Notes under the pieces: generated by a model
Database searches by the model: none
What the model saw: the letters and a program-made list of their open reading frames with translations, nothing else
Told to the model about the DNA's origin: nothing
Program-made: the position numbers and the translations under genes
In this document: positions 11,652 through 37,505 of the stretch, piece after piece
How positions within the stretch are numbered: the first letter of the stretch is position 1
Layout of the letters: each line of letters opens with the position of its first letter
Source of the DNA: Candidatus Latescibacterota bacterium
GTDB lineage: Bacteria; Latescibacterota; UBA2968; UBA8231
DNA: 64,000 nucleotides
Assembly: GCA_965248265.1 (NCBI GenBank)
Contig: CBDFJF010000001.1
Span: 1,728,001-1,792,000 of the forward strand
Direction: 5' to 3'

Positions 11652-12408
11652 GAACAGACGCCGCCGCACCCCAGATGGACGCCCGGAGACCCGCAGACTC
11701 GATGACATGCTCCAACAAGCCGTCGAGGGCGAGGACCTGACAAAACTGCCTGGCTACGGCAAGCCGGTCGACCTGAAGGGATACTCCACCAGCGACCCGG
11801 AGACCCGTGTTGCCAGCAAATTACTCGGCGACAACAACGTGCTGCCCCAGCCCCTGCAGGATCGCGTGGATGCCGAGAACCTGCGCCAGGAAGCCGACGA
11901 GTATCTCAAGGGTGAGGTTGAGCATCTGCGGGAAATGAAGCACGGAATCGAACCCGCGGCAGCCGCCTTCACGGCTCCGTTTCCCGATCGTCAAGCAATC
12001 CTCGACCTACTCGGCACGGAGAGCTGGCCATCCTACTTGCCCGAGCCGTCAGGCGCAGAACTGCAACGCCGCCAGACCTTCAAGCAGATGGGCAAGGTAT
12101 TGCTCGAGCAGGTATCGGGATATAACCGTCGCTTCGAGGTCGTCGTCTCGCAATACCTCGGGTGCCTGCAGCGCTACAATGACTGTGTCGAGCGAGTCAG
12201 CAAGCAGATCTCGCTGGCGCCCGGCCTGCCAACCGGGCCGACCGTACGGGCTGCTGATTTGGTTCAAGAAGAAGAAACGGCTCGGGCAAAACTCGGATCA
12301 CCGCTTGCGGCGTTGCCCACAGACATCGAACAGAGACTGGATCGATACCACCGCAGTGTCAGCCCATCCGCCTGGCAGCGGTTGATGTTCACTTTGCGCG
12401 GAAGCTGA
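11644..12408 (+). CDS. DUF1992 (DnaJ-associated domain)-like protein
   Basis: G..LPGYGKPVDL...KLLGDNNVLP motif; ATG overlaps galE end. Confidence 0.65.
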   Translation: MAENRRRRTPDGRPETRRLDDMLQQAVEGEDLTKLPGYGKPVDLKGYSTSDPETRVASKLLGDNNVLPQPLQDRVDAENLRQEADEYLKGEVEHLREMKHGIEPAAAAFTAPFPDRQAILDLLGTESWPSYLPEPSGAELQRRQTFKQMGKVLLEQVSGYNRRFEVVVSQYLGCLQRYNDCVERVSKQISLAPGLPTGPTVRAADLVQEEETARAKLGSPLAALPTDIEQRLDRYHRSVSPSAWQRLMFTLRGS

Positions 12409-12409
12409 C

Positions 12410-14419
12410 TCAACGGCGTTTCCTCGCTTTCTTCATTTTCCGTCCGCCGGGCTTCCCCCGTCCACCGCTGCCTTTGCGCTTGCCCCTGTCCTTGTCTCTC
12501 GCCGGCTTCTCGGATTCGCGCTTCGACGGCGCAGGGCGCTCGGCCAGCTCATAGTTGATCCGTCGATTGGGCAGATCGACCCGCACCATCTTGACCTTGA
12601 GCTCATCTCCCAGGGTCCAGCGCACCCCGGTGCTGCGGCCGACTATGGTTTGAGTTTCACTCCATACTTCGAAGTACTCACCACCACCTCTACCCAACGA
12701 CTCCATCGGGATGAGACCTTCGGCGAAAAAATCGTCCGGGCGCACGAACAAACCGGCTGTATGAACGCCGACGACTCGCGCCGCGAATACCTCCCCGACT
12801 CGCTTGCACGCCAACAGACAGGCTGCCAGGTGATCGATCTCGCGTTCGGCGCTCACGGCTCGGCGCTCTGTTTCCGAGCAGCGCTGTGCCGCGGCGTCGA
12901 GCCCGCGCAACACGGAACGGCCTTGCCAATGGTTCCACAATGCTCGATGCACCAGCAGGTCGGGATAGCGTCGAATCGGTGAAGTGAAATGGGCATAGGC
13001 TTCGGATGCCAGACCGAAGTGCAGAGATACCTGCGCCGAGTAATAGGCCTGCGACAACGTGCGCAGCAGCAGCAGCTGACCGGCCTCCGCCTGCGGAGCC
13101 TGTTTCAGACCCCGGACGAAGCGCGCCAGGCTCTTTGGATTATCGCGGTCCTTGGCCTGCAGTCTGAAGCCGAAGCTGTTCGCCCAGCCCTCCAACAGCT
13201 CCCACTTTTCCGGAGGCGGCGGTGGGTGGACGCGGTAAACACCTGCCAGACCCTGCTTGAGCAGGTACTCGGCGACCGACTCGTTCGCCGCGATCATGAG
13301 ATCCTCGATCACGTGGTGAGCTTCGTGCGATGTGCGAGGCACGATGTTCGTGGGCTCACCGTCGTCGTTGATGACGACGCGGGCCTCGGCGATGTCGAGA
13401 TCCAGTGATCCCCTGTGGAATCGCCGCCCGCGCAGCAAACGCGACACCGCGATGGCCTGCCGGACAACCTGCGCCGTCTCCTTGGGAACGGCGGCCCGGT
13501 CGCCATCGATGAATCGCTGGACCCGTGTGTAGGTGAGTCTTGCAGCACTGCAGATCAATGTGGGATAGACTCCGACGACGCGTCGGTTGCCATTCTTGTC
13601 CACCAGCATCTCACAGGTGAGTGTCAGACGCGGCTCACCCGGGACTAGCGAACACAAGCCATTGGAAAGGCGTTCGGGAAACATCGGCAGTACCTGCGTC
13701 GCCAGGTAGACACTAGTGCCGCGCACCCTGGCTTCGCGATCCAGCGCCGACCGCGCCTTGGCGTAGGAGGCGACATCCGCGATCGACACCCAAACGCGGT
13801 AACGCTCCCCCTCCTTTTCGACGGACACGGCATCATCGAAGTCGCGCGCGTCCTCACCGTCGATGGTGACGTGGGTGCACTCGCGCAAGTCGCGACGGTC
13901 GTCGGCCGCCAACACCTTGTCCGGCTGCACCTCACCGAAACCATCAGCCTGCGTCATCACATCCGTAGGAAAGTCGATCGGCAAGCCGAGATTGGCGACA
14001 GCCATCTTCAGCTGGGTCGCATCACTGCCGCCACTTCCCAGGCGTTCGACGACCGTCGCCAGGGCCGCGTGGATGTGCGTTTTCGGCTGGGCAATGCGGA
14101 AGCGGATGGCCTCGTCCGCCTCGCACTCATCGCCGGAACCATCACGGACGAACAGAGCCTTGCCATGAGGCTCGGGGTCGATCCAGACTGCGCCGCGCTG
14201 ACGGCGCAACCAGCCGACGCAGGGCTCACGGGGCTCTTCTGCAACCCGGGTACGTCTCTGAGCTGGACGCTTAACCTGCGTCTTCCTGCGTCGAGGCTGC
14301 GAAGCGGGCGGACCGGGGGCTCTCTTGCGCCCGGAGCGCTTCGGGGCCTTGTGACCCGCGGTACGGCTGCGGGCAGACTTACCTTTGCCTCGCGACTTAC
14401 GCGTAGCAGATTTGGCCAC
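12410..14419 (-). CDS. rnr: Ribonuclease R (RNB/VacB family)
   Basis: TIDGEDARDFDDAVS, HFTSPIRRYPDL, C-terminal S1 domain and basic tail. Confidence 0.9.
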   Translation of the reverse strand: MAKSATRKSRGKGKSARSRTAGHKAPKRSGRKRAPGPPASQPRRRKTQVKRPAQRRTRVAEEPREPCVGWLRRQRGAVWIDPEPHGKALFVRDGSGDECEADEAIRFRIAQPKTHIHAALATVVERLGSGGSDATQLKMAVANLGLPIDFPTDVMTQADGFGEVQPDKVLAADDRRDLRECTHVTIDGEDARDFDDAVSVEKEGERYRVWVSIADVASYAKARSALDREARVRGTSVYLATQVLPMFPERLSNGLCSLVPGEPRLTLTCEMLVDKNGNRRVVGVYPTLICSAARLTYTRVQRFIDGDRAAVPKETAQVVRQAIAVSRLLRGRRFHRGSLDLDIAEARVVINDDGEPTNIVPRTSHEAHHVIEDLMIAANESVAEYLLKQGLAGVYRVHPPPPPEKWELLEGWANSFGFRLQAKDRDNPKSLARFVRGLKQAPQAEAGQLLLLRTLSQAYYSAQVSLHFGLASEAYAHFTSPIRRYPDLLVHRALWNHWQGRSVLRGLDAAAQRCSETERRAVSAEREIDHLAACLLACKRVGEVFAARVVGVHTAGLFVRPDDFFAEGLIPMESLGRGGGEYFEVWSETQTIVGRSTGVRWTLGDELKVKMVRVDLPNRRINYELAERPAPSKRESEKPARDKDRGKRKGSGGRGKPGGRKMKKARKRR

Positions 14420-14485
14420 GATGCTCCGTGAAGGTTGGTAAGAGATTCGCGCCAGAGGCAGCGCGAACGGTGAAATGCCAGCCTA

Positions 14486-15895
14486 TCAATCGGTGGCAGA
14501 AGCAGTATCGAGCTTGTCCCCGGGAAACTCGACGGTGAATTGCGTGCCCAGTTGGTTTTGCATCTTGATGCTGCCGTGCAACTGGCTGACGAGGGTGTTG
14601 ATCAGCTGCAGCCCGAGTGACTCTGACGAACGGAAGTCGACCTCGGCCGGAAAGCCGATACCGTCATCGGCAACTTCGAGCGTGTAACCGATGTCCGATT
14701 GCGTCAAACGGACCCGAATCTCACCCTTGCGACCTGAGGGATACGCGTACTTGAGGGAGTTGGAGATGAGCTCGTTGATCATCAGTCCACATGGAATCGC
14801 GTGATCCAGATCCAGGGAAACGTCCTCGACTTCGGAATGAAAGCGAATATCCTGGGGACTGATCTTGTAACTCTTAAACAGGTAGTCCGCCAGGCCTTTC
14901 AGGTACTGGGCGAAATCCACCTTGGCCAGATCATCCGATTGGTAGAGCCGTTCGTGAATCGAAGCCATCGCCCGAATGCGATTGCGGCTGTTTTGAAACA
15001 TTTCCACTATGACCGGATCGGTGATCTGGCGCGTCTGCAGGCTGAGCAGACTGGATATGATTTGCATGTTGTTCTTGACGCGATGATGGATCTCTTTCAG
15101 CAGGACAACCTTCTCGGTGAGTGATTCCGTCAGCATCTTGTTGGCGTCAGAGATCTCCTGCGTCCGTTCTTCAACCCGTTGCTCCATCTCCTCGTCGCGC
15201 TGCTGGATCTGGTGCAACATGTCGTTGAATTCCTCGGTCAAATCACCAAGGTCGTCGTCGGCGAATTTGACGGCACGCAACGAGTAATCCCTGCTCTCCG
15301 AAACCTCGTTGGCCGTGTCGACCAAGTTCTCTATCGGCCGCGCGATCACCCGCAGTACACTCAGAGATATCAGCAGCGCGATGCCCGAGCAGAGTATGAT
15401 AATGACGGCCGTAACGATGACGGAACGCTCAAGCTGGCGGTAGAACAGATCCAGGTCAGCTATGATATGGATCGAGCCGATGAAATCGTCATCCTGGTAA
15501 ATGTGCTTGACCGAGATCACGTAGCTGCTGGTGAATGTGATGTCCTCTACGAGCGGCAGCGGTGGCATCACCAACTCTCCGCCGTCTCGAGAGTACGCGG
15601 CGAACACATCACCGTTTTCATCAAAGAAGCATGCTCCGCGCACATGGGGCTTCGCCGTGAGCGAAGTCAGCGTCGCTTCGGCGTCCCTCGGAACTGCGAA
15701 GCGAATAGCGGCGGCCCCGTTGGCGCCGATGACGTCGGCCGTGTTTTCCAGCTCACTGACCATGAAGTCCCTGAAACTGAGTACTTCGTAGGCGACGATC
15801 GCCACGGAGGCCATCAACATGGCGGCAATCGTCGTCACGATGATGATGATCGTCAGCTTGCGGTGCAGGGGTTGGTTTTGAAATCTCTGCTTCAT
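14486..15895 (-). CDS. Membrane sensor histidine kinase (periplasmic sensor, HAMP, HisKA_2)
   Basis: Two TM segments, HAMP, EIHHRVKNN, NELISNSLKYA, DDGIG, SLGL. Confidence 0.92.
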   Translation of the reverse strand: MKQRFQNQPLHRKLTIIIIVTTIAAMLMASVAIVAYEVLSFRDFMVSELENTADVIGANGAAAIRFAVPRDAEATLTSLTAKPHVRGACFFDENGDVFAAYSRDGGELVMPPLPLVEDITFTSSYVISVKHIYQDDDFIGSIHIIADLDLFYRQLERSVIVTAVIIILCSGIALLISLSVLRVIARPIENLVDTANEVSESRDYSLRAVKFADDDLGDLTEEFNDMLHQIQQRDEEMEQRVEERTQEISDANKMLTESLTEKVVLLKEIHHRVKNNMQIISSLLSLQTRQITDPVIVEMFQNSRNRIRAMASIHERLYQSDDLAKVDFAQYLKGLADYLFKSYKISPQDIRFHSEVEDVSLDLDHAIPCGLMINELISNSLKYAYPSGRKGEIRVRLTQSDIGYTLEVADDGIGFPAEVDFRSSESLGLQLINTLVSQLHGSIKMQNQLGTQFTVEFPGDKLDTASATD

Positions 15896-26212: not shown

Positions 26213-27118
26213 CTAATCAGATTGCCTGGCCTGCCCCAGGAGCGTGTCGAGGGGACTCTCGATGCGTACGAGTTCCTTGCGCGTGACATGTGTGTAGACC
26301 TCGGTGGTCTTTGAACTCTTGTGTCCAAGAAGCTCTTGGATGTAGCGCAGATCGGTACCGCCCTCCAATAGATGGGTCGCGAAGCTGTGGCGCAGCGTGT
26401 GCACGGTTGCTCGTTTCTTGATTCCCACGGCGATAACAGCCCTGGCAAACACCTTCTGCACGGACCGCTCTGTCAGGTGGCGGCCCCGACGCGCTCCGGG
26501 GAAAAGCCATGTCGATGGCTGGTATGCTTTCCAGTACAGCCGCAGGCCCTCCAAAATAGACCTGGGCAGTATGGTGTACCGATCCTTGCGACCCTTGCCT
26601 TGCTTTACCCGGATGAGCATCCGCTCGCTGTCTATGTCACTCACCTTCAGACGAACTACCTCACCCACACGAAGCCCGCCGGCATACAACAAGGCGATGA
26701 TTACCCGGTGTTTCGGATTTCGCTGCGAGTCCAACAGTCGCAGCACTTCTCGCTGACTGAGTATCTCGGGCAGCTGGCGCCCACTCCGAGGCCTGCGCAG
26801 ACCTTCCAATGGGGCTGGCTGTTTCAGCACTTCCCCGTAGAGAAAGCTCAGAGCACTGTAGGCGATGTTGAAGGCTGAGCGGCTGACCTTACGATCGACG
26901 ATGAGCCACTCGAGATGTGATCTCACCTCGGACTGGCGGTCGCCCCAAAACCCGCGCTTCCATTGCAGGAAACGCCGGCAGTATCCCATGTATGACTTCT
27001 GTGTCTTCTTGGCGTAGCCCCTCAATCGCAGCTCTGACTCGAGGCGGTTGAGGATGGTCAGTTCTTCTTTGAAAAGATCCGGGTGTCTCCGATAGCGCCG
27101 CATGTTCGTGTTTCTCAA
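26213..27118 (-). CDS. Tyrosine recombinase, integron-integrase-like but lacking the IntI-specific insertion
   Basis: N-terminal LRLRGYAKKTQKSY domain; catalytic R (GLR), K (GKGRKDR), HTLRH, LGH, Y (TTEVY) intact; start may be ATG 27103. Confidence 0.92.
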   Translation of the reverse strand: MRNTNMRRYRRHPDLFKEELTILNRLESELRLRGYAKKTQKSYMGYCRRFLQWKRGFWGDRQSEVRSHLEWLIVDRKVSRSAFNIAYSALSFLYGEVLKQPAPLEGLRRPRSGRQLPEILSQREVLRLLDSQRNPKHRVIIALLYAGGLRVGEVVRLKVSDIDSERMLIRVKQGKGRKDRYTILPRSILEGLRLYWKAYQPSTWLFPGARRGRHLTERSVQKVFARAVIAVGIKKRATVHTLRHSFATHLLEGGTDLRYIQELLGHKSSKTTEVYTHVTRKELVRIESPLDTLLGQARQSD

Positions 27119-27293
27119 GCAAAGGTGTATCCCTTGCTTGAGAGAAATCGATGCCAGTCGGACTGCACGGCGAACGCTTCTGCTATCTCATACTCGCACA
27201 GGTGGATAACGTTGAAGCCCGCGTGTAAAACCTATTGCGACTGTTTACCCGAATACGCACCTTCGTGTCAGATAAGTAACACATAGCGTCGAT

Positions 27294-27329
27294 TATGCGA
27301 ACCTTTTGTTCGCATACAAGCAGTTAGAG
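27294..27329 (+). other. attI-like primary recombination site, crossover G27323|TTAGAGG
   Basis: GTTAGAGGC (27323-27331) is the exact reverse complement of GCCTCTAAC (28021-28029); preceded by the inverted repeat TATGCGAAC-ctttt-GTTCGCATA. Confidence 0.78.
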
Positions 27330-27352
27330 GCCATGCGGCCAAAGCGAAGACC

Positions 27353-27381
27353 TTGCACTCTATACGCCATTGGCGTATAGT
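27353..27381 (+). promoter_or_regulatory. Sigma70-type promoter and operator of TA cassette 1
   Basis: TTGCAC-17 bp-TATAGT overlapped by perfect palindrome CTATACGCCA-T-TGGCGTATAG (27360-27380); ATG begins 7 nt after the -10. Confidence 0.75.
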
Positions 27382-27387
27382 AGATCT

Positions 27388-27704
27388 ATGACCTTTGTTG
27401 AAACGCCCATCTTTTCAGAGGAAATTCTGACTCTACTACTCGACGATGGCTACCGAGCATTGCAACTGGCGATCCTGTTCCGACCCGATCAGGACAGATC
27501 ATCCCGCGCACAAGCGGCTTGCACAAATTGAGATGGAATTTGCCGCGTGGCGGCAAACGCGGCGGTTTGCGTGTCATTTACTACTGGGACAAACCCGACG
27601 ACACTGTTTACATGCTCTGGGTGTATCGCAAGAGTCGGCAGGAGGATCTAACGGCTCAGCAAGCCAGACTGCTCAGCAAACTTGTGAAGGAGTACCTGTC
27701 ATGA
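27388..27704 (+). pseudogene. RelE/HigB-family toxin, frameshifted (cassette 1)
   Basis: MTFVETPIFSEEI..YRALQLAILFRPDQ continues in another frame as IIPRTSGLHKLRW..GKRGGLRVIYYW; one base missing near 27492. Confidence 0.82.
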
Positions 27705-27991
27705 AAGATCGCGACTTTGACAAACTTGTAGATAGCGTCAAACAAGCCGGTGCGATCAAGCGCGGCAAACTCAAACCGGGCCGAACCATCCAGATGGACC
27801 CTGACGATGTCAGATTGATCCGCAAGAAACTGCAAAAGTCCCAATCTGAATTTGCCCTGATGATAGGGGTCAGTGTCTCTACTCTGCAAAACTGGGAGCA
27901 GGGACGCCGCAATCCCGAGGGCCCGGCTCGAGCCCTGCTCAAGATCGCTTCGGAGAATCCCGAAGCAGTGGCGCGATCCTTGAGTGCGTAG
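27701..27991 (+). CDS. HigA/NadS-like HTH-XRE antitoxin (cassette 1)
   Basis: SQSEFALMIGVSVSTLQNWEQGRRNPEGPA; ATGA overlap with toxin stop. Confidence 0.9.
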   Translation: MKDRDFDKLVDSVKQAGAIKRGKLKPGRTIQMDPDDVRLIRKKLQKSQSEFALMIGVSVSTLQNWEQGRRNPEGPARALLKIASENPEAVARSLSA

Positions 27992-28022
27992 CGAGCCCAC
28001 ACCCCGCCCCTGACCACACAGC

Positions 28023-28123
28023 CTCTAACAAACGGTTTACACTGCGCCGCCTTCAGCGGCTTGGCCTTCGGCAATCTGCCTTCGCTGTGCTCGACAGATT
28101 CGTAAACCGTAGAAACGTTATGT
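28023..28123 (+). repeat. attC-like site 1
   Basis: CTCTAAC...ACGGTTTAC/GTAAACCGT arms...GTTATGT; internal GGCCTTCGGCAA. Confidence 0.88.
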
Positions 28124-28158
28124 GCCATGAATGGAAAAGCCGTTCCCTGCCCACCCAC

Positions 28159-28188
28159 TTGACCAAGACGTACCACAATTGGTACATT
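28159..28188 (+). promoter_or_regulatory. Promoter and operator of TA cassette 2
   Basis: TTGACC-18 bp-TACATT with inverted repeat GTACCA-caat-TGGTAC (28170-28185); ATG at 28196, no RBS. Confidence 0.65.
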
Positions 28189-28195
28189 ACGACCT

Positions 28196-28546
28196 ATGAA
28201 TCGAGACAAGCCGTTGGCCGTTCGCTTCTTTTGCACGTCGACAGGCCGAGAGCCTGTCAGAGAGTGGCTGCGCAGCTTGAACCGCGAATCAAAGAAGGTC
28301 ATTGGTGCGGACATCAAGACGGTTCAGTTTGGATGGCCGCTCGGGATGCCGCTGGTGCGCAAGCTCGAGAGCAATATTTGGGAGGTACGCAGCACGCTTC
28401 CAAGCTCAATAGCTCGCGTTCTCGTAACGATTGACCAAGAAACCGTTGTCTTGTTGCATGGTTTCATCAAGAAGAGTCAGAAGACTCCCGCGAGAGATCT
28501 GGCATTGGCACGCACCAGACTTAAGATGCTTCAGGAGGAATCATGA
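28196..28546 (+). CDS. RelE/ParE-superfamily toxin, Gp49/DUF891-like (cassette 2)
   Basis: GREPVREWL, GWPLGMPLVRKL..IWEVR, LLHGFIKKSQKTP. Confidence 0.9.
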   Translation: MNRDKPLAVRFFCTSTGREPVREWLRSLNRESKKVIGADIKTVQFGWPLGMPLVRKLESNIWEVRSTLPSSIARVLVTIDQETVVLLHGFIKKSQKTPARDLALARTRLKMLQEES

Positions 28547-28824
28547 ATAAGAAACACGTCGGCAGCAGCTTCGATGAATTCCTCGCAGAAGAAGACCTGC
28601 TCAGCGAGGCAGAAGCAACTGCGGTGAAGCGCGTTATCGCCTATCAGTTGACTCAGTTCATGGAGGATAACGAGCTGTCAAAAACCGCGATGGCAAGGCG
28701 AATGCAAACCAGTCGTTCTGCACTCGACCGGCTGCTTGACCCAGCCAATCCCTCCGTGACACTACAAACTATGGATCGAGCAGCTCGAGCCTTGGGCAAA
28801 AAGCTGCGTATCGAACTGACCTGA
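28543..28824 (+). CDS. HTH-XRE antitoxin (cassette 2)
   Basis: HVGSSFDEFL, SKTAMARRMQTSRSALDRLLDP; ATGA overlap. Confidence 0.9.
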   Translation: MNKKHVGSSFDEFLAEEDLLSEAEATAVKRVIAYQLTQFMEDNELSKTAMARRMQTSRSALDRLLDPANPSVTLQTMDRAARALGKKLRIELT

Positions 28825-28869
28825 CTGTAAGCGATTCAACTCGCAAGGCTGTGGAATCGACTTCACAGC

Positions 28870-28960
28870 ACATAACAGCACTGTTCGCGCGGCGCGCCAT
28901 ACGGCGCTTGGCCTTCGGCAACCCGCATGCGCGGGTTCGCAAACCGGCAAGACGTTAACT
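28870..28960 (+). repeat. attC-like site 2
   Basis: ACATAAC...GTTAACT; 51 nt (28907-28957) identical to site 3 (30829-30879). Confidence 0.9.
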
Positions 28961-28983
28961 GACATTCTAGTTTAGCAGAACTC

Positions 28984-29466
28984 ATGACATTTTATCTTGG
29001 CCTTTTCATTGTTGGCATTGCATTCGGTACATTGGCGCTCACCTTCATGTCCATTTCTCGGTTGGAGAGTGTGAAGTTCAATACGGGCGAGGTTCAGTGG
29101 AAAACAGTCTTGCTATGTTACGTGTGCAGCACCAGCTATATCACCGGGCGCCCGCTTCGCCCTCTTTATGGATATTCGCTCTTGCTAGTGGCCATCACCC
29201 TTTACCCGGCAGCGTTCGCCATTGGCCAAGGATTCGATGGTACGTTTGGATCCTCACATTTTCTCGTCTTGTCTCGCTTGGCGAACATTCTATGCCAATT
29301 GTGCGATTGGCCAGCGATGGGCTTTTGTCTTGAATACCTCGGATTTCGTTTCCGATCTGTCTTCTGCGTAGCTGGGTTTGCCGTCACAGGCTTCCTACTG
29401 CTATTCAATCCGATCGCCTTCTTTGGCTACTGGCCACCCTTCATGACCGAGTATGTGAGGATTTGA
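28984..29466 (+). CDS. Hypothetical membrane protein (cassette 3)
   Basis: 160-aa hydrophobic ORF starting just after the R' box of site 2. Confidence 0.65.
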   Translation: MTFYLGLFIVGIAFGTLALTFMSISRLESVKFNTGEVQWKTVLLCYVCSTSYITGRPLRPLYGYSLLLVAITLYPAAFAIGQGFDGTFGSSHFLVLSRLANILCQLCDWPAMGFCLEYLGFRFRSVFCVAGFAVTGFLLLFNPIAFFGYWPPFMTEYVRI

Positions 29467-29469
29467 CGA

Positions 29470-30783
29470 TGCAGCAACCGGGCTGATAGGTAACAGTCTA
29501 AACCGGGTTGATGGGTGACACTATTGTTTTGATTGAATTCACTCCCGTACGATCATGTCCCTCTCGTCGACGGTGGCTAGGAGGACGGTGTTGAAGTAGA
29601 TGGCCCAGACGCCGTCGTCGATCTCCTCGAGACCGATGTCGAGATGCTTGAGAGACTGAGCGATGAAGATGAGCTTGTGGCCGAGGCGTATGGTCCCGGC
29701 TCGGGTGACGTGCTTGATGACGAAGTGACCGGGGTACTCAATGGTCGGCATGCGGCCGGGATAGGGCCGGGGTGATGGGTGGTACCGGGAGCCAGGAGTC
29801 TTGCCGTTGAGGGCGTCATGGGGACGCTCGTCGTTGTAGAGCTGTCGGAAGCGCTGGAAGGATCGCTGCTGGGCGGCCTTGTTGGCGGCGGGTGGCCGAC
29901 AGGTAGCGGCCTTCAAGGTGCGATGCATGCGTTCGTGGGCGCCATTTTCCTGCGGCGATGCCGGGCGGATCCGCTGGTGCACGATGCCGAGCCTCATCCA
30001 CCAAACGTTGAGTCGGCATAGCCCATGCAATCCTCTGGAAGCAAAGGGAACGCCGTTGTCGGTGCGAATGGCCTGAGGCAGGCCGAATTCGCGGAAGGCT
30101 CTCTCGAAGACCGGACGCGCATGCAAGGTCTTGATGTCGGGCAGGGCGCGGCAGGTCAGGAGATAGCGAGTGTGCTGATCGCTGATGGTGAGAGGGAAAC
30201 ACCAAACTCCGTTCTTGGTAGGAAATTGGCCTTTGAAGTCGGCCGTCCACAGATCGTTGGGGTTGTCGGTGGTCGGCGGCACGGCTCCGGGGTGCTGACG
30301 TGGGCGTCGTCGTCGTCGCTTCTTCACCAGGCCTTCGCGCACCAGCAGATCGCCTGCCGTACTGACCGCCGGCCAGGAGCAGATGTGCGGATGTCGAGGC
30401 GCCAGCCAGTCCAACAGTTTGTTCGGTCCCCAATCGGGGTGCCGTGTGCGCGCTCCGAGAATGAGCTCGGCAATCTCTGGCGCCATGCGATGCGGACAGG
30501 TGTGGGGCGCGTGACTGCGGTCCTGTAACCCGGGCACCCCCTCTTCGGCGTGCCGCTGAAGCCACTTGTATCCGGTTTTGCGGCTGATCCCGTATCGCTC
30601 GCACAGCTCCGCTCTCGAGTAGTGCCCGCGCTGATCGTCGGCGATAAATCGCTTACGTTGTTCCATGGGTGCTGTCTCCATCCAGGGCATCGACCAACCT
30701 CCCAATTGGGGTTGGTCAAAAAGTAGAAGGAGTGTCACCCATCAACCCGGTCAGATGTGTTACCAATCTACCCGGTTTGTACC
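29470..30783 (-). mobile_element. IS481-family insertion sequence
   Basis: About 50-bp imperfect terminal inverted repeats, each with two AACCGGG..GAT.GGT.ACA units; ends approximate, no target duplication seen. Confidence 0.85.
29539..30690 (-). CDS. IS481-family DDE transposase
   Basis: MPWMET start, HTH GISRKTGYKW, WTADFKG, RTDNG, PQENGAHERMHRTLK, YNDERPH. Confidence 0.93.
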   Translation of the reverse strand: MPWMETAPMEQRKRFIADDQRGHYSRAELCERYGISRKTGYKWLQRHAEEGVPGLQDRSHAPHTCPHRMAPEIAELILGARTRHPDWGPNKLLDWLAPRHPHICSWPAVSTAGDLLVREGLVKKRRRRRPRQHPGAVPPTTDNPNDLWTADFKGQFPTKNGVWCFPLTISDQHTRYLLTCRALPDIKTLHARPVFERAFREFGLPQAIRTDNGVPFASRGLHGLCRLNVWWMRLGIVHQRIRPASPQENGAHERMHRTLKAATCRPPAANKAAQQRSFQRFRQLYNDERPHDALNGKTPGSRYHPSPRPYPGRMPTIEYPGHFVIKHVTRAGTIRLGHKLIFIAQSLKHLDIGLEEIDDGVWAIYFNTVLLATVDERDMIVRE

Positions 30784-30792
30784 GTGCACGTC

Positions 30793-30882
30793 ACTTAACA
30801 CACGGTTTGCGCTGCGGCGCATTCGCGCCTTGGCCTTCGGCAACCCGCATGCGCGGGTTCGCAAACCGGCAAGACGTTAGAT
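30793..30882 (+). repeat. attC-like site 3
   Basis: ACTTAAC...CGGTTTGCG/CGCAAACCG perfect arms...GTTAGAT. Confidence 0.9.
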
Positions 30883-30949
30883 GAAATGGGAACGGATGGA
30901 TTAAGGCCTCGGTCCCATATCTCCAAAAAGTGGTATACGGATACATAGG

Positions 30950-31453
30950 GTGAGAATCGTGACTACGTATTTCGCGGATTATAGGTGGTCTAAGCGCGAG
31001 CCAAAGGGGATATCGCCGATTGATGATCCCGCGGGCAAGGAGCATTTCCGCCTTTTTGAAGTCAATGGTGGCATGCGGCTAGAGCAGTTTGATGAGGCCG
31101 GCAAGTTCCGACGTCTTGTCTACTGTCCGCACGACGCGAAAATGGCGCGCGGTACGACATTTGAAGTCTCAGATGACCATACGCATAACATTCGTCGTTC
31201 TGAGGATGGTGCTGTGCGATCCTACGAAGTATACGTGTGGCCCGATGGCGACTATTCTGAGGATGTGCATCCGGAAGTCAGGATCTTCAATGAACACGGC
31301 AGGCTTGTGTGGCAACATCGACCACAGCGTGTGTCGGAATCTGCCTGGGATATTCACGTATTCGACGCGCTGGGCAAACCACGCGTGGTCTTGCACCACA
31401 CCGATTGCGACGGTCCTGAACCTGACACGATCGTTGAGGAATGGCTTGAATAG
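30950..31453 (+). CDS. Hypothetical protein (cassette 4)
   Basis: 167-aa ORF between sites 3 and 4; no motif recognised. Confidence 0.6.
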   Translation: MRIVTTYFADYRWSKREPKGISPIDDPAGKEHFRLFEVNGGMRLEQFDEAGKFRRLVYCPHDAKMARGTTFEVSDDHTHNIRRSEDGAVRSYEVYVWPDGDYSEDVHPEVRIFNEHGRLVWQHRPQRVSESAWDIHVFDALGKPRVVLHHTDCDGPEPDTIVEEWLE

Positions 31454-31547
31454 AGGAACGAACCGGCTGCATCAGGTAACACACTAGACGTCTGGGCCCA
31501 CGTGGCTTCTATTGTTGAGGTGCAGGCAGATGAGTGTCCCACATCAC

Positions 31548-31636
31548 ATATCACAGCAATTCACGCTACGCGCCGTTCGGCGCTAGACTTTGGGCAAGCC
31601 GCATTCGCGGCTTCGTGAATTGTGAAGACGTTAGAC
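31548..31636 (+). repeat. attC-like site 4 (degenerate R'')
   Basis: ATATCAC...CAATTCACG/CGTGAATTG arms...GAAGAC-GTTAGAC; same internal hairpin layout. Confidence 0.8.
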
Positions 31637-31652
31637 GAAACTGAGTCATAGT

Positions 31653-32420
31653 ATGGTACACGCCTGTGAGTTCGAATCCTTCCATTTGGATCAACTGCAG
31701 TATCTCATAAACAGCCATTTGGGATCACTGATCCCTGGATGGGCACTTCCGTCTGAGTACATCGCTTCCTGTCTAGAACGCAATCCAAGCGAATTCGTCA
31801 CTGATCCGTGGGTTTGCGAGCGCAAGACCTTCATCGCGATGAAGAATGACCGCGTGTGTGCTGCCGCCCATATTCTGAGATATCGAAAAGACTCGCCGGC
31901 AGAAGGCAGGGGTGAAATCGATTGGTTTGTGTGTTGGCCAAAGGAAGCAGAAGCAGGCGACGTCGTCTTATCAACTTCGGTGCAACAGCTTGATTCCTGG
32001 CAGACCCGCGCACCTTTGGCAGGGTGCAATCTCCCTGTGCGGGTTTTTTTTTTCGGGCGTACCAGAATCTTGGCAACGCATAATCGAGCTTCTCAAGCGG
32101 GCGGGCTTTACGCCAGGGCACGATGAGGCTGAGGCTATATACGGAGGGGGGCTGGCCTCGGTGGAACCATTGGCGGCGGCATGGCAGGCTTGTACGGTGT
32201 TGGGGTGGTGAAGAAGGCACGACGGCAAGGCATTGGAACTGCCGTAACAGCCGGTGCATGCTCATTTGCCCACGAATTGGGTTATCGTGCAGCGACATTG
32301 TTTGCTTCGGGTCAAGGCAAGTACTTGTATCCACATCTCGGCTTCGAGTTTATAGGCACATTCAGCCATTGGTCATATTCCAAGACGCGACAAAGAAAAC
32401 ATCAGGGGCTGAAGGCATGA
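31653..32420 (+). pseudogene. Disrupted GNAT acetyltransferase(s) (cassette 5)
   Basis: Frameshift at T10 run 32044-32053 and second break at G-run near 32146-32151; C-terminal piece has V..ARRQGIG..LY..LGF GNAT motif. Confidence 0.7.
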
Positions 32421-32424
32421 GGAC

Positions 32425-32458
32425 GCCTAACAAAGCGGATAGTTACTATCCGTTCACA
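32425..32458 (+). repeat. Truncated attC-like remnant
   Basis: CGCCTAAC just after the stop (1 mismatch to the complement of GTTAGACG), then short hairpin CGGATAGT-T-ACTATCCG. Confidence 0.5.
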
Positions 32459-32481
32459 AGCCTGAAAGGGGCCCTCCAAAA

Positions 32482-32946
32482 ATGGCGAAACGAAAAATCA
32501 GGGTTATTCATCCTACCGACCCCATAAATATCACCTTCGGAGCAGGCGATGAATATCGGTATCTTGCCACCGGAGACCACACGGACGGTGAATATTTCCT
32601 TGTTGAAGCCACTGTACCACCTGGTGGTGGCCCTCCCCCCCATATTCAAACCCGAGAGGAAGAAGCGTTCTATATTTTAGAAGGCGAGCTTACGTTTTAC
32701 AGCGAAGAGGGAGAGATTGTCGCCGGACCCGGAACCTATTTAAACATCCCCAAAGGGGCCACGCATCGTTTTCGCAACAACGGGAATCAGACGGCCAAGA
32801 TGCTCTTTTTCTTTGCGCCCGCCGGTATTGAAAAGCTCTTTGACGAGTTCAGTAAAATGGATGCCCCCGAAGACGACTTGAAAGCTGCAATCAAAGCCAT
32901 GAACACCTTGGGCCAAGAGTATGGTGTCGAGTACTTGGGAGAATAA
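32482..32946 (+). CDS. Cupin domain protein (quercetinase-like)
   Basis: GGGPPPHIQTREEEAFYILEG, PKGATHRF. Confidence 0.85.
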   Translation: MAKRKIRVIHPTDPINITFGAGDEYRYLATGDHTDGEYFLVEATVPPGGGPPPHIQTREEEAFYILEGELTFYSEEGEIVAGPGTYLNIPKGATHRFRNNGNQTAKMLFFFAPAGIEKLFDEFSKMDAPEDDLKAAIKAMNTLGQEYGVEYLGE

Positions 32947-33024
32947 GCTAGACAGGCGTGCCATCTTGGAACAACCGCTCGATAACCGAGTCGCATTATG
33001 ACTCTCCATCGAACGGAGACGCTC

Positions 33025-33639
33025 ATGAAGCTCACGAGTCTCTTCACGTCTCCTCAGATCGACATTCTCGCTGACCTTCACGAACGGGATAGCCGAGAAC
33101 GGCAGGAAGGGATACGAGAGGAGTCCAGTCTCAAGGCCCTTGCGCCGGCGGTCGCGCAGTTGCTTTACCTTCTCATTGTCCGAAAAAGCGCAAAGACGAT
33201 CGTCGAATTTGGCACCTCACACGGCTACTCAACGATTCACCTGGCCGCGGGGGCCGACAGGACGGATGGTCGCGTCTACACGGTGGACATGATTCCCGAG
33301 AAGACAACATCGGCTAGGGACAACCTCGCAGCGGCTGACCTCCTGCATCGGGTTACACTGGCGACTTGTGATGGAGCCGCCTTCGCTACGTCGCTGCCCG
33401 AGAGCATCGACTTCGTCCTGGTCGACTACGGCATCCCAGCGTTTGCGCCTGCCTGGGACGCGCTGCGCGGCAAGACTGAACCAGGGTGTCTAATTTTTTT
33501 CGATGGCGGCCCAAAGGGTTACTGGGAATCGGGGGCAGCAATGGGCTTCAAGGCGCTTCTTGAAGACGACCCCGCGTTCATTGTCTCGATCCTGCCGATG
33601 GAGAAGGACCAGTTGATCGGCGTAAGAATCGCGGAGTGA
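33025..33639 (+). CDS. Class I SAM-dependent O-methyltransferase
   Basis: IVEFGTSHGYSTIHLA, IDFVLVD; GGAG RBS. Confidence 0.85.
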   Translation: MKLTSLFTSPQIDILADLHERDSRERQEGIREESSLKALAPAVAQLLYLLIVRKSAKTIVEFGTSHGYSTIHLAAGADRTDGRVYTVDMIPEKTTSARDNLAAADLLHRVTLATCDGAAFATSLPESIDFVLVDYGIPAFAPAWDALRGKTEPGCLIFFDGGPKGYWESGAAMGFKALLEDDPAFIVSILPMEKDQLIGVRIAE

Positions 33640-33704
33640 TCAACCTTCAGTCTCCGTGAGGCTACCGCGACTGGGATGCGAATCAGATTAAGTGCGACCG
33701 ATGT

Positions 33705-33772
33705 ATACAGCAGCACTTGCGGATCAGGCCTGCGGGCCTTCGGCAAGTTCGCGAATGGGCGGAACGTTATAT
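33705..33772 (+). repeat. Degenerate attC-like site 5
   Basis: Retains GGCCTTCGGCAA and TTCGCGAA...GAAC-GTTATAT; left half eroded. Confidence 0.65.
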
Positions 33773-33823
33773 GACATATAAGATCCAAATGCATATAGAC
33801 ATCAGCAGGTCTATGTAAGGACG

Positions 33824-34875
33824 ATGGGGTTCCTGATGAGATCGGCGATATATGGTTTTCTTCTGGTGTGCGGCTGGACCGTTGGCAGCGAAGCGGAGGA
33901 GCGTAAACTCGGCGTGACGGTGGATCCCCGCATAGAATTGCTGTCGGTAGTTGGTGTTTTGGCGGGGCACCAGGGGCTTACCAACTATGACATCAGATAC
34001 AAGCAAGAGATTCTGAACCACTTTTCAGGGCATAGGGATCACCATGCCGTCAGGTTTCTGCGGGGCGTTATGGCCAGAGCCCTTGCTTCTGATGCTTACG
34101 CGATGGTGATGATTCATTTGTCTCAACCGCCAGCATTAGTCTTCGAGAGCCCAATCATCGATGACGAAATGGAAGACTATATTACGCGAGCGTTTGGTGG
34201 CGACATCAACATCATTGCATTCGTGGAAGGGCTCCGAGGCTTCGCCAACGACGCCAATTTCAATGAGTTTTTCGCCTCTAACGAGGACTTCTACCAATCT
34301 CTGCTCTCGGAAACTCTCGCCAAGCTTGGCAACACGGATTACATGGCTGCGCTCGAAGAGTCCTTGGACCAGTACTGCATCATGGCGGATTTGGGCCAAG
34401 TATCGTGCGTGATACAGGGATGATCGACCTTTTCAGTATTATCGGCCCTGTCGCAGAGAATGACGGTATTCCCGATTTCGGAGACGTTGCCAGACTTCAA
34501 GATGTCTTATGGCATGAGTTCGCCCATTCGTTTGTCGATCCCATAACCGCAGAGCATCTTGAAAGCGTCGAGAAATACTCAACCTTGTATGTCCCTATTG
34601 CAGATGAAATGATGAACGCCGGGGGGTATATGAACTGGCAAACCTGCGTTAACGAGCACATAATCAGGGCCATTACATGTCGATTGTTTCACGCTGAGAT
34701 TGGGCCAGCTGCCGGCGAGAAGGCGCTGGAAGCCGAAAGAGAGAAGGGCTTCAAGTACATCGACTCGATTTACTCTAGTCTGCTTATCTACGAAGCCAAT
34801 CGGTCCACGTACTCCTCCTTCGAGAGTTACTACCCCCAAATTGTTGCATCTTTCGGAGAGATTGCTGGAGAATGA
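33824..34875 (+). pseudogene. DUF4932-like secreted metallopeptidase (HExxH), frameshifted
   Basis: Signal peptide and VDPRIELLSVV; second frame LGPVLHHGGFGPSI...WHEFAHSF...NEHIIRA; break near 34360. Confidence 0.72.
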
Positions 34876-34910
34876 AAGACCCGATGTCCGTCGGTGTACT
34901 GTGCTCCAAC

Positions 34911-34933
34911 GTCACATAACAACACTGTTTCGC
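34911..34933 (+). repeat. attC-like left half-site, end of recognisable array
   Basis: GTCACATAAC (1 mismatch to the complement of GTTATATGAC at 33766) followed by AACACTGTTTCGC, similar to site 2. Confidence 0.65.
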
Positions 34934-35073: not shown

Positions 35074-36072
35074 GTGTTGGTAGTGAATGAATCTGAAAGT
35101 TACGGCCCCGGCCCCGGACCGGGCATGCTGCTATCGACTGCACAGCTTGACGAGTTCAAAGCAGAGGGAGCGGTCGCGATTCCGGCATTGATACCTCCTG
35201 ATGTGCTTGCCGGATGGCAGGCTCAGATACGAGCCGCTTGCTCCGATGGCGTCGACTTTGACGACCCGGACACCTGGAAGCCCACTGGGCGCTACGCACC
35301 CGAGGGTGGCTGGCCCGAGTTCAGCCCCTGCCTGTATGATGTACCGAGTCTGCAGTCCATCGTGGAGCAGATCGGCGGCGGCGCCTTTGCCCCTTCCCAC
35401 CCAGCGGGGACGCGATGGACGCCGCAGGTACCGATGACACGGGTGATCCTGCCGAATGACCCGGACAAGGATTGGACCCCCCCGCACAACGGCCACCTCG
35501 ATGGCTACGCGTCAAGCTGGGGCGGGGGGTTCATGGCGATCTTCGTTGTGCTGCTCTGGGACGTCAGCAGCCCTACCGGCGGCGGCACAGCCTACTGGCC
35601 AAGGTCGCACCTGACCAATCACCGCTACTTCCTCAAGCACCCTGAGCAGTTCGACGGCTCGTACATGTTCTCTGAGCCTGTGAAGAGCGGTGGGCACCTG
35701 GCACTGTTGGAGGGGGACGACAGTGTGGGTGAGGTGGTATGCATGACGGCGCGAGCTGGCGACGCCATGCTGCTCCATGGCCTCACCACGCACATCGGTT
35801 CAGCTAACGCCCCGGGGACGAGGCAGGCACGGGTAGCGCAGTTTGCCCGGTACTGCTGCAGGGAAATGCGCGAGCAGGCACCGGCAGTCATGTTCCCTGA
35901 CAAGGATGGCACGCCATGGTCGCCGGACAAGGACGACCCCGCTGACGAACGAGCGAGGGCAACAGGATTTCTACCGCTGGATCACCCTGGCCGGCAGCTC
36001 TCACGATATGATGTGCCGGAAAACCTCTGGAAGTATTGGGGCCCTGCTGTCAACACAGAGCTCGCTGAATAA
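35074..36072 (+). CDS. PhyH-family dioxygenase
   Basis: HLDGY, GGGTAYWPRSH, AGDAMLLHGLTTH; start uncertain. Confidence 0.75.
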   Translation: MLVVNESESYGPGPGPGMLLSTAQLDEFKAEGAVAIPALIPPDVLAGWQAQIRAACSDGVDFDDPDTWKPTGRYAPEGGWPEFSPCLYDVPSLQSIVEQIGGGAFAPSHPAGTRWTPQVPMTRVILPNDPDKDWTPPHNGHLDGYASSWGGGFMAIFVVLLWDVSSPTGGGTAYWPRSHLTNHRYFLKHPEQFDGSYMFSEPVKSGGHLALLEGDDSVGEVVCMTARAGDAMLLHGLTTHIGSANAPGTRQARVAQFARYCCREMREQAPAVMFPDKDGTPWSPDKDDPADERARATGFLPLDHPGRQLSRYDVPENLWKYWGPAVNTELAE

Positions 36073-36388
36073 GTGAAGACCGATCTACTGCAGCGTGTGG
36101 TTGAGGTGTTTGCACGTGGATTCTGCTTTACGCGCAGTTTTACACACCCCTATCTGGCTGATGACGTCGGGCATGCAACCTGGTGCTCTAACATGTATGT
36201 GGATCCAAAATTTCGCCGTCGCGGAATCGGTCGAGCGATGATGTCTGCAATGCTGCGTGACGACCACACGAACGGCTCTGCGTTGGCCGTACTTACCGCC
36301 AGCCACACGGGTGCTAAACTCTATCCGGTTGTGGGGTACAAGCAAATCGGTACACTCTTTGTTGTTTACACCGAAGAAGAAGCAATAG
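36073..36388 (+). pseudogene. GNAT acetyltransferase remnant
   Basis: MYVDPKFRRRGIG..LY..VGY motif with very short N-part; removing one T near 36358 gives a natural end LLLFTPKKKQ*. Confidence 0.6.
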
Positions 36389-36440
36389 CAGCACAGCGAG
36401 TGCTCGATTCAGTCCCAAGTTCCAGTATCACAACTGAGAT

Positions 36441-36905
36441 ATGTCAACCCGACGGAAACCCAAGGTTGGAGTCCAGGCGCTCATCGTTCGTGACGGCTGC
36501 CTGCTGGCCATCGTCAAGGAATACCCTGAAGGTACCTCGTACATCCTCCCTGGTGGTGGTCAAGAGCATGGTGAAACACTGGCCATCGCGATCCAGCGCG
36601 AATACGAGGAAGAGCTTGGGGTGAAGGTGGAGGTTGAGAAACTCCTGTTTGTCCGCGAATACATTGGAAAGAACCACGAGAATGCTGTCGCAGACAGGGA
36701 TATTCACGTCGTAAACATCGTTTTCGCCTGCAGCGTACCTGAGGATTACCTCGCGGCCGTGGGGCCAGCACCCGATCCTGACCAGGTGGGTGTCACCTGG
36801 CTACCTATTGAGAAACTGAATCAATATCGATTCTATCCTGGTGCGCTTCGAGAAGCTCTGCTTGACATTGCTCAATGTCAGGTCTATCTGGGAGACGTCA
36901 ACTGA
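36441..36905 (+). CDS. NUDIX hydrolase
   Basis: Nudix box GGGQEHGETLAIAIQREYEEELG. Confidence 0.9.
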   Translation: MSTRRKPKVGVQALIVRDGCLLAIVKEYPEGTSYILPGGGQEHGETLAIAIQREYEEELGVKVEVEKLLFVREYIGKNHENAVADRDIHVVNIVFACSVPEDYLAAVGPAPDPDQVGVTWLPIEKLNQYRFYPGALREALLDIAQCQVYLGDVN

Positions 36906-36953
36906 GCCCTTGAGTGCAGGCCAGTTCGCCAACCAGACACAGGAGGCACAACA

Positions 36954-37505
36954 ATGGCTGCACAACATGCGACGATGAACCGACTGCAGCGCCGGGCAAG
37001 GAAACCTGGCGAACAACGCATCAGCGGCGCAGAAATCTGGCGACTGGTCGACCTTTCAAAGAGCAAGGACCCCGAAGACCGGTTGGAAGCCGCCGACAAT
37101 CTTTGTCCGTGCCACGTTCGACGGCGGATTGATGAAGTATGGGAGGCACTCTACCGGCTGCTCGAAGACTCGGACGTAAAGGTGCGCAAAGCCGCTTTCC
37201 ACACGCTCCACGACGGTGGCGATCTGAGTGACCCCGCTCTGGACCCGATCCTGGAGCGCGGAAGCAGGAATGAGACTGATCGAAAGCTCAAACGGACGAT
37301 CACGAGGCTGCTGAAGGAACGTGGCGTCAAGACGAGAGAACGAGCCGAACTCACCCAACAGGTACAAGTGACGGTCGGAGCATATCCCGAGCAAGGCAAG
37401 TGTGACTTCTGTGGAGAGACAGGCCCGGTCAAAAAGGACTTCGACACCACGATACCGGATCAAGGCGGCTCCAGACCGGCCATGATCTGCGCGGCCTGCG
37501 ATTGA
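36954..37505 (+). CDS. HEAT-repeat protein with CPCH motif and C-terminal Zn ribbon
   Basis: LCPCH, LLEDSDVKVRKAA, CDFC...CAAC; GGAGG RBS. Confidence 0.75.
   Translation: MAAQHATMNRLQRRARKPGEQRISGAEIWRLVDLSKSKDPEDRLEAADNLCPCHVRRRIDEVWEALYRLLEDSDVKVRKAAFHTLHDGGDLSDPALDPILERGSRNETDRKLKRTITRLLKERGVKTRERAELTQQVQVTVGAYPEQGKCDFCGETGPVKKDFDTTIPDQGGSRPAMICAACD

Follow-up and report, generated by a model that had tools for sequence, protein, structure and literature searches.

An integron-like cassette array headed by a tyrosine recombinase without the I2 insertion in the chromosome of a Latescibacterota bacterium

A 64,000-nt stretch of DNA from a Candidatus Latescibacterota bacterium (GenBank assembly GCA_965248265.1, contig CBDFJF010000001.1, positions 1,728,001 to 1,792,000), hereafter the window, carries at positions 26213–34933 a tyrosine recombinase gene that is divergent from an attI-like primary site and a series of gene cassettes. 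We read this locus, with a probability of roughly 80%, as a sedentary chromosomal cassette-capture platform which works like an integron and is run by a recombinase without the I2 helix, the segment specific to canonical integron integrases (IntI). What would be new is an integron-like function without the defining feature of the enzyme. An initial annotation of the window had taken the locus for a parallel integron class, and this reading is supported. Observed directly are the anatomy of the locus, covariation in the fold of its attC-like sites, linkage across genomes, variable content, a cassette duplication that runs from GTTA to GTTA, the lack of a canonical IntI in the source genome, and purifying selection acting on the recombinase gene. 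Full-text literature searches, whose coverage leaves out most subscription journals, turned up no account of an I2-less integron-like system.

The recombinase is encoded on the minus strand (26213–27118) by a 301-aa open reading frame (ORF) with Pfam SAM_4 (PF13495) and Phage_integrase (PF00589) domains; its start is likely the Met at residue 6, giving 296 aa, since a database copy (P0001) has that length and relatives share a conserved MRRYRRH start. The catalytic residues R150, K175, H240, R243, H266 and Y275 are invariant in a 35-sequence alignment, which bears out the initial annotation, where all of them were said to be kept, and the KDRYTI-to-WLFP distance, given there as about 20 aa, is exactly 20 aa (LPRSILEGLRLYWKAYQPST). 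The best curated family is TIGR02249 (integron integrase), with a score of 239.6 bits that falls under the cut-off of 265; the match comes in two pieces (model 1–177 and 233–315) with 178–232 unmatched, and the IntI-specific segment is therefore skipped. VchIntIA (2a3v) is the best PDB match by sequence, with query residues 189–209 placed opposite residues 174–236 of the chain. BLASTP against IntI1 from a plasmid record (36% identity) opened gaps of 7, 24 and 10 residues, and the ALERKYP motif of IntI1 falls inside the 24-residue gap. The full IntI insertion is thus matched neither in IntI1 nor in VchIntIA, and the signature insertion is missing from the protein, as had been proposed; by alignment, about 41–55 residues are absent at the IntI-specific I2 region.

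An AlphaFold2 model of the protein (predicted local distance difference test, pLDDT, 87) joins helices 186–199 and 217–231 by a short connection with no extra helix, and its nearest fold is that of 2a3v, followed by XerA. The curated Xer models were all failed (XerC 173.4 vs a cut-off of 335, XerD 171.3 vs 330, XerA 207.3 vs 220). Relatives carry the names ‘tyrosine-type recombinase/integrase’ or ‘XerD’ in annotation sources, much as the initial annotation had foreseen for a protein that would be filed as merely XerD-like. The gene is single-copy in the source genome and is under strong purifying selection, with a ratio of nonsynonymous to synonymous substitution rates (dN/dS) of 0.07–0.12 when compared with three intact orthologues (four intact genes in all).

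The attI-like site (27175–27326, plus strand) is situated ∼200 nt upstream of the recombinase gene on the opposite strand. It consists of conserved blocks and a palindrome (27291–27315) whose arms covary between genomes, and it ends in CAAGCA G|TTA with the crossover at G27323. The palindrome is formed by a GTTCG/CGAAC element that is present in the attC-like sites too. The attI-like block is kept in seven genomes as far as CAG(T/A)TA, after which the sequences diverge immediately. Beyond it the window holds seven co-oriented units, divergent from the recombinase gene and with all cassette ORFs on the plus strand, with G|TT junctions at 27323, 28117, 28954, 30876, 31630, about 32452 and 33766. 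The primary site, the approximately seven cassettes and the junction positions of the initial annotation are borne out by this layout. Five of its seven cassette boundaries were recovered (four strongly, one weakly) by R1, a covariance model built from five sites, three of the window and two of a relative; the other two, near 32452 and 34933, are degenerate sites. Furthermore, cassettes 1, 2, 3 and 7 each begin with bases that complement the inner box of their own attC (e.g. GTTAGAGGC with GCCTCTAAC, and GTTATGTGC with GCACATAAC), the mark left when a circular cassette is opened at G|TT.

From 13 sources, 100 R1 sites were aligned, every one of them oriented the same way with respect to the cassettes. 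In this alignment, which was fitted to the model and hence favours the structure, 94.1% of cells pair and 22 of the 28 pairs are changed on both sides. The covariation score was 0.411 vs 0.116 in shuffles, none of which (0/500) reached it, and slid controls gave 0.03–0.05. Read on the strand complementary to coding, a site runs through TAAC (87 sites), a 7-nt spacer, a 9-bp stem, three small hairpins, the returning stem, a 4-nt spacer and GTTA (90 sites). Spacer combinations are 7/4 (66 sites), 7/3 (17) and 6/4 (12). Of the 66 sites of the 7/4 kind, 52 form two more pairs (CG/CG in 20, GC/GC in 19), which leave one bulged base on the 3′ half together with a 5:1 loop beside the R box. Across these 66 sites the identity of the bulged base varies (T 25, A 24, C 14, G 3), and a second conserved extrahelical base was not found in R1 sites, which have the 5:1 loop instead. 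The long upper stem (9 bp) ends in a conserved CGAAC, and the three-hairpin top is conserved as well.

Two readings of the sites were discarded. An L stem without any extrahelical base had been read from the lack of inserted residues in 96 of the 100 sites on the 5′ side and 88 on the 3′ side, and was dropped once two further covarying pairs were seen to leave a one-base bulge. A mirror-image polarity with the top strand reacting, taken from the 7/4 asymmetry, is unsupported: the bulge lies on the canonical half, and the orientation relative to replication fits either polarity. The initial annotation's claim of a different site grammar holds in part. The 5:1 loop, the unconserved bulge, the 9-bp stem and the three-hairpin top are distinctive; the R box, the spacer, the L stem with its bulge and a variable top are integron-like, and the grammar differs only partly because the integron layout is kept, one-base bulge included.

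The source genome contains 29 R1 sites in several arrays, 28 of them on one strand, and one cassette is present in two contexts. Cassette 1 recurs in the array at C1:779833–781951 (C1 and C2 being contigs of the source genome) with 98.3% identity over 181 nt and 99.7% over 627 nt. The identity begins exactly at GTTA, where the cassette joins attI in the window and an attC in the second array, and it ends at the next GTTA. The two copies are the product expected of attI × attC and attC × attC exchange at the core. With regard to replication, dnaA (C1:2962995–2964449) coincides with the GC-skew minimum (2.963 Mb), and all major arrays lie in one replichore, where the cassette-coding strand is the leading-strand template and the genes run head-on to replication. 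The complementary strand is the lagging-strand template, an orientation favouring its folding. Such an array orientation is described as that of a minority among classical chromosomal integrons (PMC5371416).

In the second copy of cassette 1, an IS3-like element with a two-ORF transposase (L121 3014–4326, i.e. C1:780013–781325) interrupts the RelE-like gene, and the RelE-like gene of the window is frameshifted at the same spot (about 27494–27519). The last 35 nt of attI, comprising the palindrome and GTTA, recur at 88–92% identity at the head of four other arrays of the source genome (C1:661787–661820, C1:778546–778579, C1:841079–841114 and C2:3895768–3895802). These four arrays have in common an upstream module of ∼130 nt that is distinct from that of the window, and a search of two of the flanks (L120, L121) revealed no remnant of an integrase. 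Since attI cores head four arrays with no integrase remnant in the searched flanks, one enzyme may serve several attI-headed arrays in trans.

The same system was found in other Latescibacterota. Intact orthologues of the integrase (79–86% identity) are present in three other genomes (L009/G078, L010 and G057) and decayed orthologues in four more, which have a stop (G147), a frameshift (G055), a truncated gene (G087) or the C-terminus only (G094). Integrase (intact or decayed), attI and R1 array occur together in seven genomes, namely that of the window, L009/G078, L010, G147, G055, G087 and G094, and in all seven the R1 sites follow attI in the same orientation. Among seven genomes with an integrase at least 73% identical, six carry 10–27 R1 sites and G076 (84% complete) has none. 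A tblastx comparison of the window array with the arrays of eight loci from other genomes gave no match, and the flank beyond the integrase showed no tblastx similarity to the flanks of L009, L010 and L104. As the initial annotation had predicted, homologues thus lie beside similar arrays of variable content, with shared geometry and no cassette matched by tblastx.

The source genome (7.32 Mb, two contigs, estimated 92% complete) has no TIGR02249 match over the cut-off, and hence no canonical IntI was detected elsewhere in it that might process these sites, a possibility raised by the initial annotation. A second IntI candidate at C1:538569, matching TIGR02249 model positions 185–302, was rejected as a 394-aa phage-type integrase. 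Across the phylum, canonical IntI was found over the cut-off in 15 of 151 genomes, and R1 sites (E ≤ 1e-6, 150 genomes scanned) in 3 of these 15. One of the genomes, G060, carries both systems, each with its own site type: the canonical IntI heads an array of short attCs (about 60 nt) whose inner L box is longer by one base, and 1.3 kb downstream of the insertion-less integrase there is an R1 site; G060 contains R1-type arrays too. To a distance of about 65 kb from the G060 canonical IntI, no R1 site was found. The G060 IntI locus (L102, G060:C1:3538500–3558499) has at least three short classical-type attC sites at about 9733–15228.

Several observations weigh against a cassette platform run by the window enzyme. 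With the source genome 92% complete by estimate, an IntI might lie in the part that is missing. R1 sites occur in 63 of 150 genomes, many without an integrase at the thresholds used; these include G120, G121, G123, G131 and G142, which are single contigs with 10–14 R1 sites and in which no integrase was found at those thresholds. In G085, which has 23–53 R1 sites, some 84 kb separate the canonical IntI from the nearest of these; a decayed insertion-less gene (44% identity) heads one of its arrays, and no other insertion-less copy was found there. From G085 and the R1 genomes without a detected integrase it follows that action of canonical IntI in trans is possible in general. Moreover, the integrase is broken or truncated in four of the seven linked genomes (G055, G147, G087 and G094), and G057 has R1 sites on both sides of its gene and no attI detected by BLAST. 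In the sites themselves, the one-base bulge is kept on the half where the canonical extrahelical base lies. A search for sigma-70-like promoters near attI gave 0 sites in 26950–27750, though the promoter type of the phylum itself may differ. Lastly, the exchanges would be catalysed by the window enzyme, to which they are assigned by linkage alone.

Some of the same observations would be expected if the array were the relic of a classical integron, i.e. an attC-site cluster that has no integron integrase (CALIN), with IntI lost or acting in trans and the adjacent recombinase an unrelated Xer-like bystander. R1 sites in many genomes where no linked integrase was found, G085 with its canonical IntI and 23–53 R1 sites, and, within the window, several frameshifted cassette genes and two degenerate attCs all favour a relic. 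However, the divergent gene–attI–array geometry is seen in seven genomes with conservation that stops at the crossover, and 12 of the 15 canonical-IntI genomes have no R1 sites. In G060 and G085, R1 sites were not found within about 65 kb and 84 kb, respectively, of the canonical IntI. The G060 IntI heads an array of its own with a different attC type, and the source genome, in which no canonical IntI was detected, has a nearly identical copy of a cassette and a recombinase gene under strong purifying selection. We therefore regard a classical relic as unlikely.

More distant members of the family also stand at the head of arrays. In a second Latescibacterota clade (45–62% identity) the R1 arrays are downstream of the integrase and co-directional with it, and attI comes just after the integrase stop codon and ends at GTTA. 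In four loci of this clade (L112, L113, L114 and L117) the attI consists of an inverted repeat (ATTACCGTAAC / GTTCGGTAAT), 6 nt and GTTA, and the four genomes diverge right after. G105, which belongs to the same class, has six nearly identical copies of an insertion-less integrase (47–49% identity to that of the window); both of the copies fetched (L115, L116) head downstream R1 arrays, suggesting that the platform also exists in a multi-copy or mobile form. The six copies, and the frequent position of relatives at contig ends, would also suit a recombinase that belongs to a mobile element targeting attC or attI, e.g. one of IS91 type with an upstream tyrosine recombinase, and would not run the array. 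Contig ends are explained by the repeat arrays just downstream, however, and the window gene is single-copy, with Ldh_2 dehydrogenase and PfkB kinase genes on one side and attI on the other. No IS91/HUH transposase was found among the adjoining genes by Pfam, and the fetched G105 copies head R1 arrays themselves. A mobile element of this kind is improbable in our view.

The window integrase shares 43–59% identity with many insertion-less proteins and 33–40% with the canonical IntIs of the same phylum, and database searches return thousands of insertion-less relatives whose alignment to the query is unbroken. A quick tree of 98 rows places the canonical IntIs in a clade of their own (support 99) and the window clade in another (100), and IntI together with the insertion-less proteins is split from an outgroup made up of the other tyrosine recombinases of the source genome (97). 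A clean sister clade of insertion-less proteins, given by this tree with a support of 98, was not retained, as the approximately unbiased (AU) test does not reject a grouping of the window clade with IntI (p 0.52). The backbone of a 50-row quick tree is a polytomy. Because of this p value and the unresolved backbone, the only claim made is that of exclusion, i.e. that the window clade, by its sequences, lies outside the canonical IntI clade. The different integrase clade of the initial annotation is upheld in that sense, with a sister grouping with IntI not rejected by the AU test.

This uncertainty in the tree is what favours a third explanation, in which the window clade is a canonical integron integrase that has secondarily lost I2, is inactive or crippled, and has left a frozen array; half of the close orthologues are pseudogenes, which also fits. 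Against it, the window protein is closer to dozens of insertion-less proteins (43–59% identity) than to canonical IntI (33–40%), the intact copies have a dN/dS of about 0.1, and a cassette has been duplicated recently. Furthermore, cassette contents are wholly different between genomes whose enzymes are 79–86% identical. We consider such a crippled IntI very unlikely. Ordinary structured intergenic repeats (repetitive extragenic palindromic (REP)-like elements or terminators), to which GC-rich hairpins after genes might point, can practically be dismissed, as they are contradicted by a cassette identity bounded exactly by GTTA in two contexts, by cassette starts complementary to their own inner box and by the single orientation of all 100 sites.

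Taking the locus as a cassette platform run by the I2-less enzyme, the recombinase would insert and excise cassettes by site-specific recombination at the G|TTA core, its partners being the fixed attI-like site that lies upstream of the recombinase gene and the attC-like site closing each cassette. The attC would act in a folded form, built from an R box of TAAC/GTTA, then a 5:1-nt loop, 2 bp, a bulge of one base, the 9-bp stem and three small hairpins. It presumably reacts as a folded single strand, and the choice of the reacting strand is put forward in the same conditional sense; by analogy with integrons, resolution would be replicative. Canonical IntI uses the I2 helix to dock extrahelical bases, and since the window enzyme is without it, recognition of site and strand would rest on other features, candidates for which are the conserved CGAAC/GTTCG element, shared by attC and the attI palindrome, and the asymmetric loop.

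Outside the phylum, repeat arrays of the TAAC...GTTA kind also accompany insertion-less relatives, which stand at their head in Paenibacillus, Clostridia and Bacteroidota. A crude repeat screen of 63 loci of at least 8 kb found three or more dispersed repeats starting 0.4–3.4 kb downstream of the integrase in 12 of them, a minimum figure given that many contigs stop directly behind the gene; the repeat-bearing loci come from Paenibacillus, Marinisporobacter and Bacteroidota. The repeats of L055, L012 and L082 have TAAC...GTTA ends and hairpin arms. N-terminal extensions precede the recombinase core in Bacteroidota members (about 200–340 aa in L039, L052, L056, L057 and others) and in many Clostridia (about 70–130 aa). 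In an integron-like subgroup, the insertion is called ‘not fully conserved’ by Smyshlyaev et al. (2021).

It is an even question, in our estimation, whether the insertion-less IntI relatives of Latescibacterota, Paenibacillus, Clostridia, Bacteroidota, Patescibacteria and others constitute a second, ancient and widespread integron class that uses folded attC sites without I2, with canonical IntI as one lineage within or beside it that gained I2. If so, cassette capture predates I2, and part of the unexplained CALIN load, together with the supposed absence of integrons from Gram-positives, comes from a definition based on I2. The system described here, conserved, apparently active and without I2, implies that current surveys overlook a whole class of cassette platforms, in phyla reported as integron-free too, and may explain some attC clusters without IntI. 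A natural enzyme with natural sites also makes the role of I2 directly testable.

The individual cassettes of the window, all on the plus strand, differ in content and preservation. Cassette 1 (27324–28117) has a frameshifted RelE-like toxin gene (27370–27704) and a helix-turn-helix (HTH) antitoxin gene (27701–27991; Pfam RelE and HTH_3/MqsA) and is bounded by attC1 (28018–28126; R1 66.5 bits). A second toxin–antitoxin pair, Gp49-like toxin (28196–28546) and HTH antitoxin (28543–28824; Pfam Gp49 and HTH_37), makes up cassette 2 (28118–28954), which ends in attC2 (28865–28963; 109 bits). Cassette 3 (28955–30876), with attC3 at 30788–30885 (114.8 bits), consists of a 160-aa ORF of no known family match (28984–29466) and an inserted IS481-like insertion sequence (IS; 29470–30784) that has inverted repeats and a 399-aa transposase on the minus strand (29539–30738; Pfam rve/LZ_Tnp_IS481). 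A 167-aa ORF (30950–31453), also matching no family, occupies cassette 4 (30877–31630), followed by attC4 (31541–31639; 99.9 bits).

Cassette 5 (31631–32452) holds a split GNAT-like gene (31653–32126 and 32181–32420, the latter part matching Pfam Acetyltransf_10) and a short, degenerate attC (32422–32459) that is reduced to a 7-bp hairpin and has no R1 match. Two genes, for a cupin (32482–32946) and a methyltransferase (32998–33639; Pfam Cupin_2 and Methyltransf_24), share cassette 6 (32453–33766), and its attC6 (33698–33775) is weak (17.7 bits, E 0.014). Cassette 7 (33767–34933) contains a split DUF4932 gene (33824–34423 and 34405–34875; Pfam DUF4932 on both) and closes the array with a truncated attC (34905–34933), of which there is the 5′ part only, with no fold and no R1 match, and with an inner box complementary to the cassette start. 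Past this last site, the interval 35074–37505 holds PhyH-like, GNAT-fragment, NUDIX and HEAT-repeat genes, i.e. small unrelated genes of uneven G+C, and no R1 sites; these may be decayed cassettes or ordinary flank. The IS481-like element is present in nine copies in the source genome (including C1:965647, C1:1010163 and C2:3899640). Four of the nine, that of the window included, lie directly 5′ of an attC-like site with the similarity extending into the site, which suggests either attC-targeted insertion or co-mobilisation with the site.

Among known systems, the upstream tyrosine recombinase of IS91-family elements would be of the same broad SAM_4 plus Phage_integrase type, but the window gene has no HUH/IS91 transposase beside it and is single-copy, with a conserved position beside attI. 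The Xer recombinases (XerC/D, XerA) resemble the window enzyme, which is Xer-like in length and fold where IntI has I2; it nevertheless scores far under the Xer cut-offs and is linked to a cassette array rather than to a lone dif site. Reverse integrons (Treponema denticola type) have a canonical IntI with the insertion in a reverse layout. The distant Latescibacterota clade and the Bacillota and Bacteroidota relatives are alike in that the array is downstream and co-directional, whereas the layout of the window clade is the classical divergent one. By formal definition (PMC4889954), the arrays of this genome, that of the window among them, would come under CALIN (at least two attC sites, no I2-bearing IntI in the cluster), provided that the attC model detects them; unlike a CALIN, the window array has an attached, conserved cognate recombinase and an attI-like site.

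This system would probably not be classed as an integron by standard detectors; detection pipelines are described as defining integrons by I2 (PMC4889954, PMC9176274). One account presents the I2 helix as the novelty by which a Xer-like enzyme became able to recombine folded single-stranded attC sites safely, and credits it with strand choice and the block of second-strand exchange (PMC7790495). Cury et al. (2016, PMC4889954) mention 50 non-IntI PF00589 proteins beside attC sites and call four ‘intermediate between IntI and Xer’, without taking them further; they also give all Firmicutes genomes as without complete integrons. The window locus has an attI at the head of the array, folded attC sites with AAC...GTT, and discrete units exchanged at G|TT; on the side of the enzyme, an I2-bearing IntI is not found, the score being 239.6 vs 265 bits with model positions 178–232 unmatched.

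The closest comparison is with sedentary chromosomal integrons such as the V. cholerae superintegron with VchIntIA and its V. cholerae repeats (VCR). The window locus differs from these in its enzyme, which is without I2 and under the TIGR02249 cut-off; in its attC sites, with a 7/4-nt spacer that gives a 5:1 loop and two pairs, an unconserved bulge (T/A/C) and a conserved three-hairpin top; and in an attI with a covarying palindrome, four further cores of which head integrase-free arrays. It is like them in having an integrase divergent from attI, co-oriented and mostly single-gene cassettes without obvious promoters, homogeneous folded attC sites with conserved AAC...GTT and a G|TT crossover, toxin–antitoxin cassettes, inserted IS elements, and orphan arrays elsewhere in the genome.

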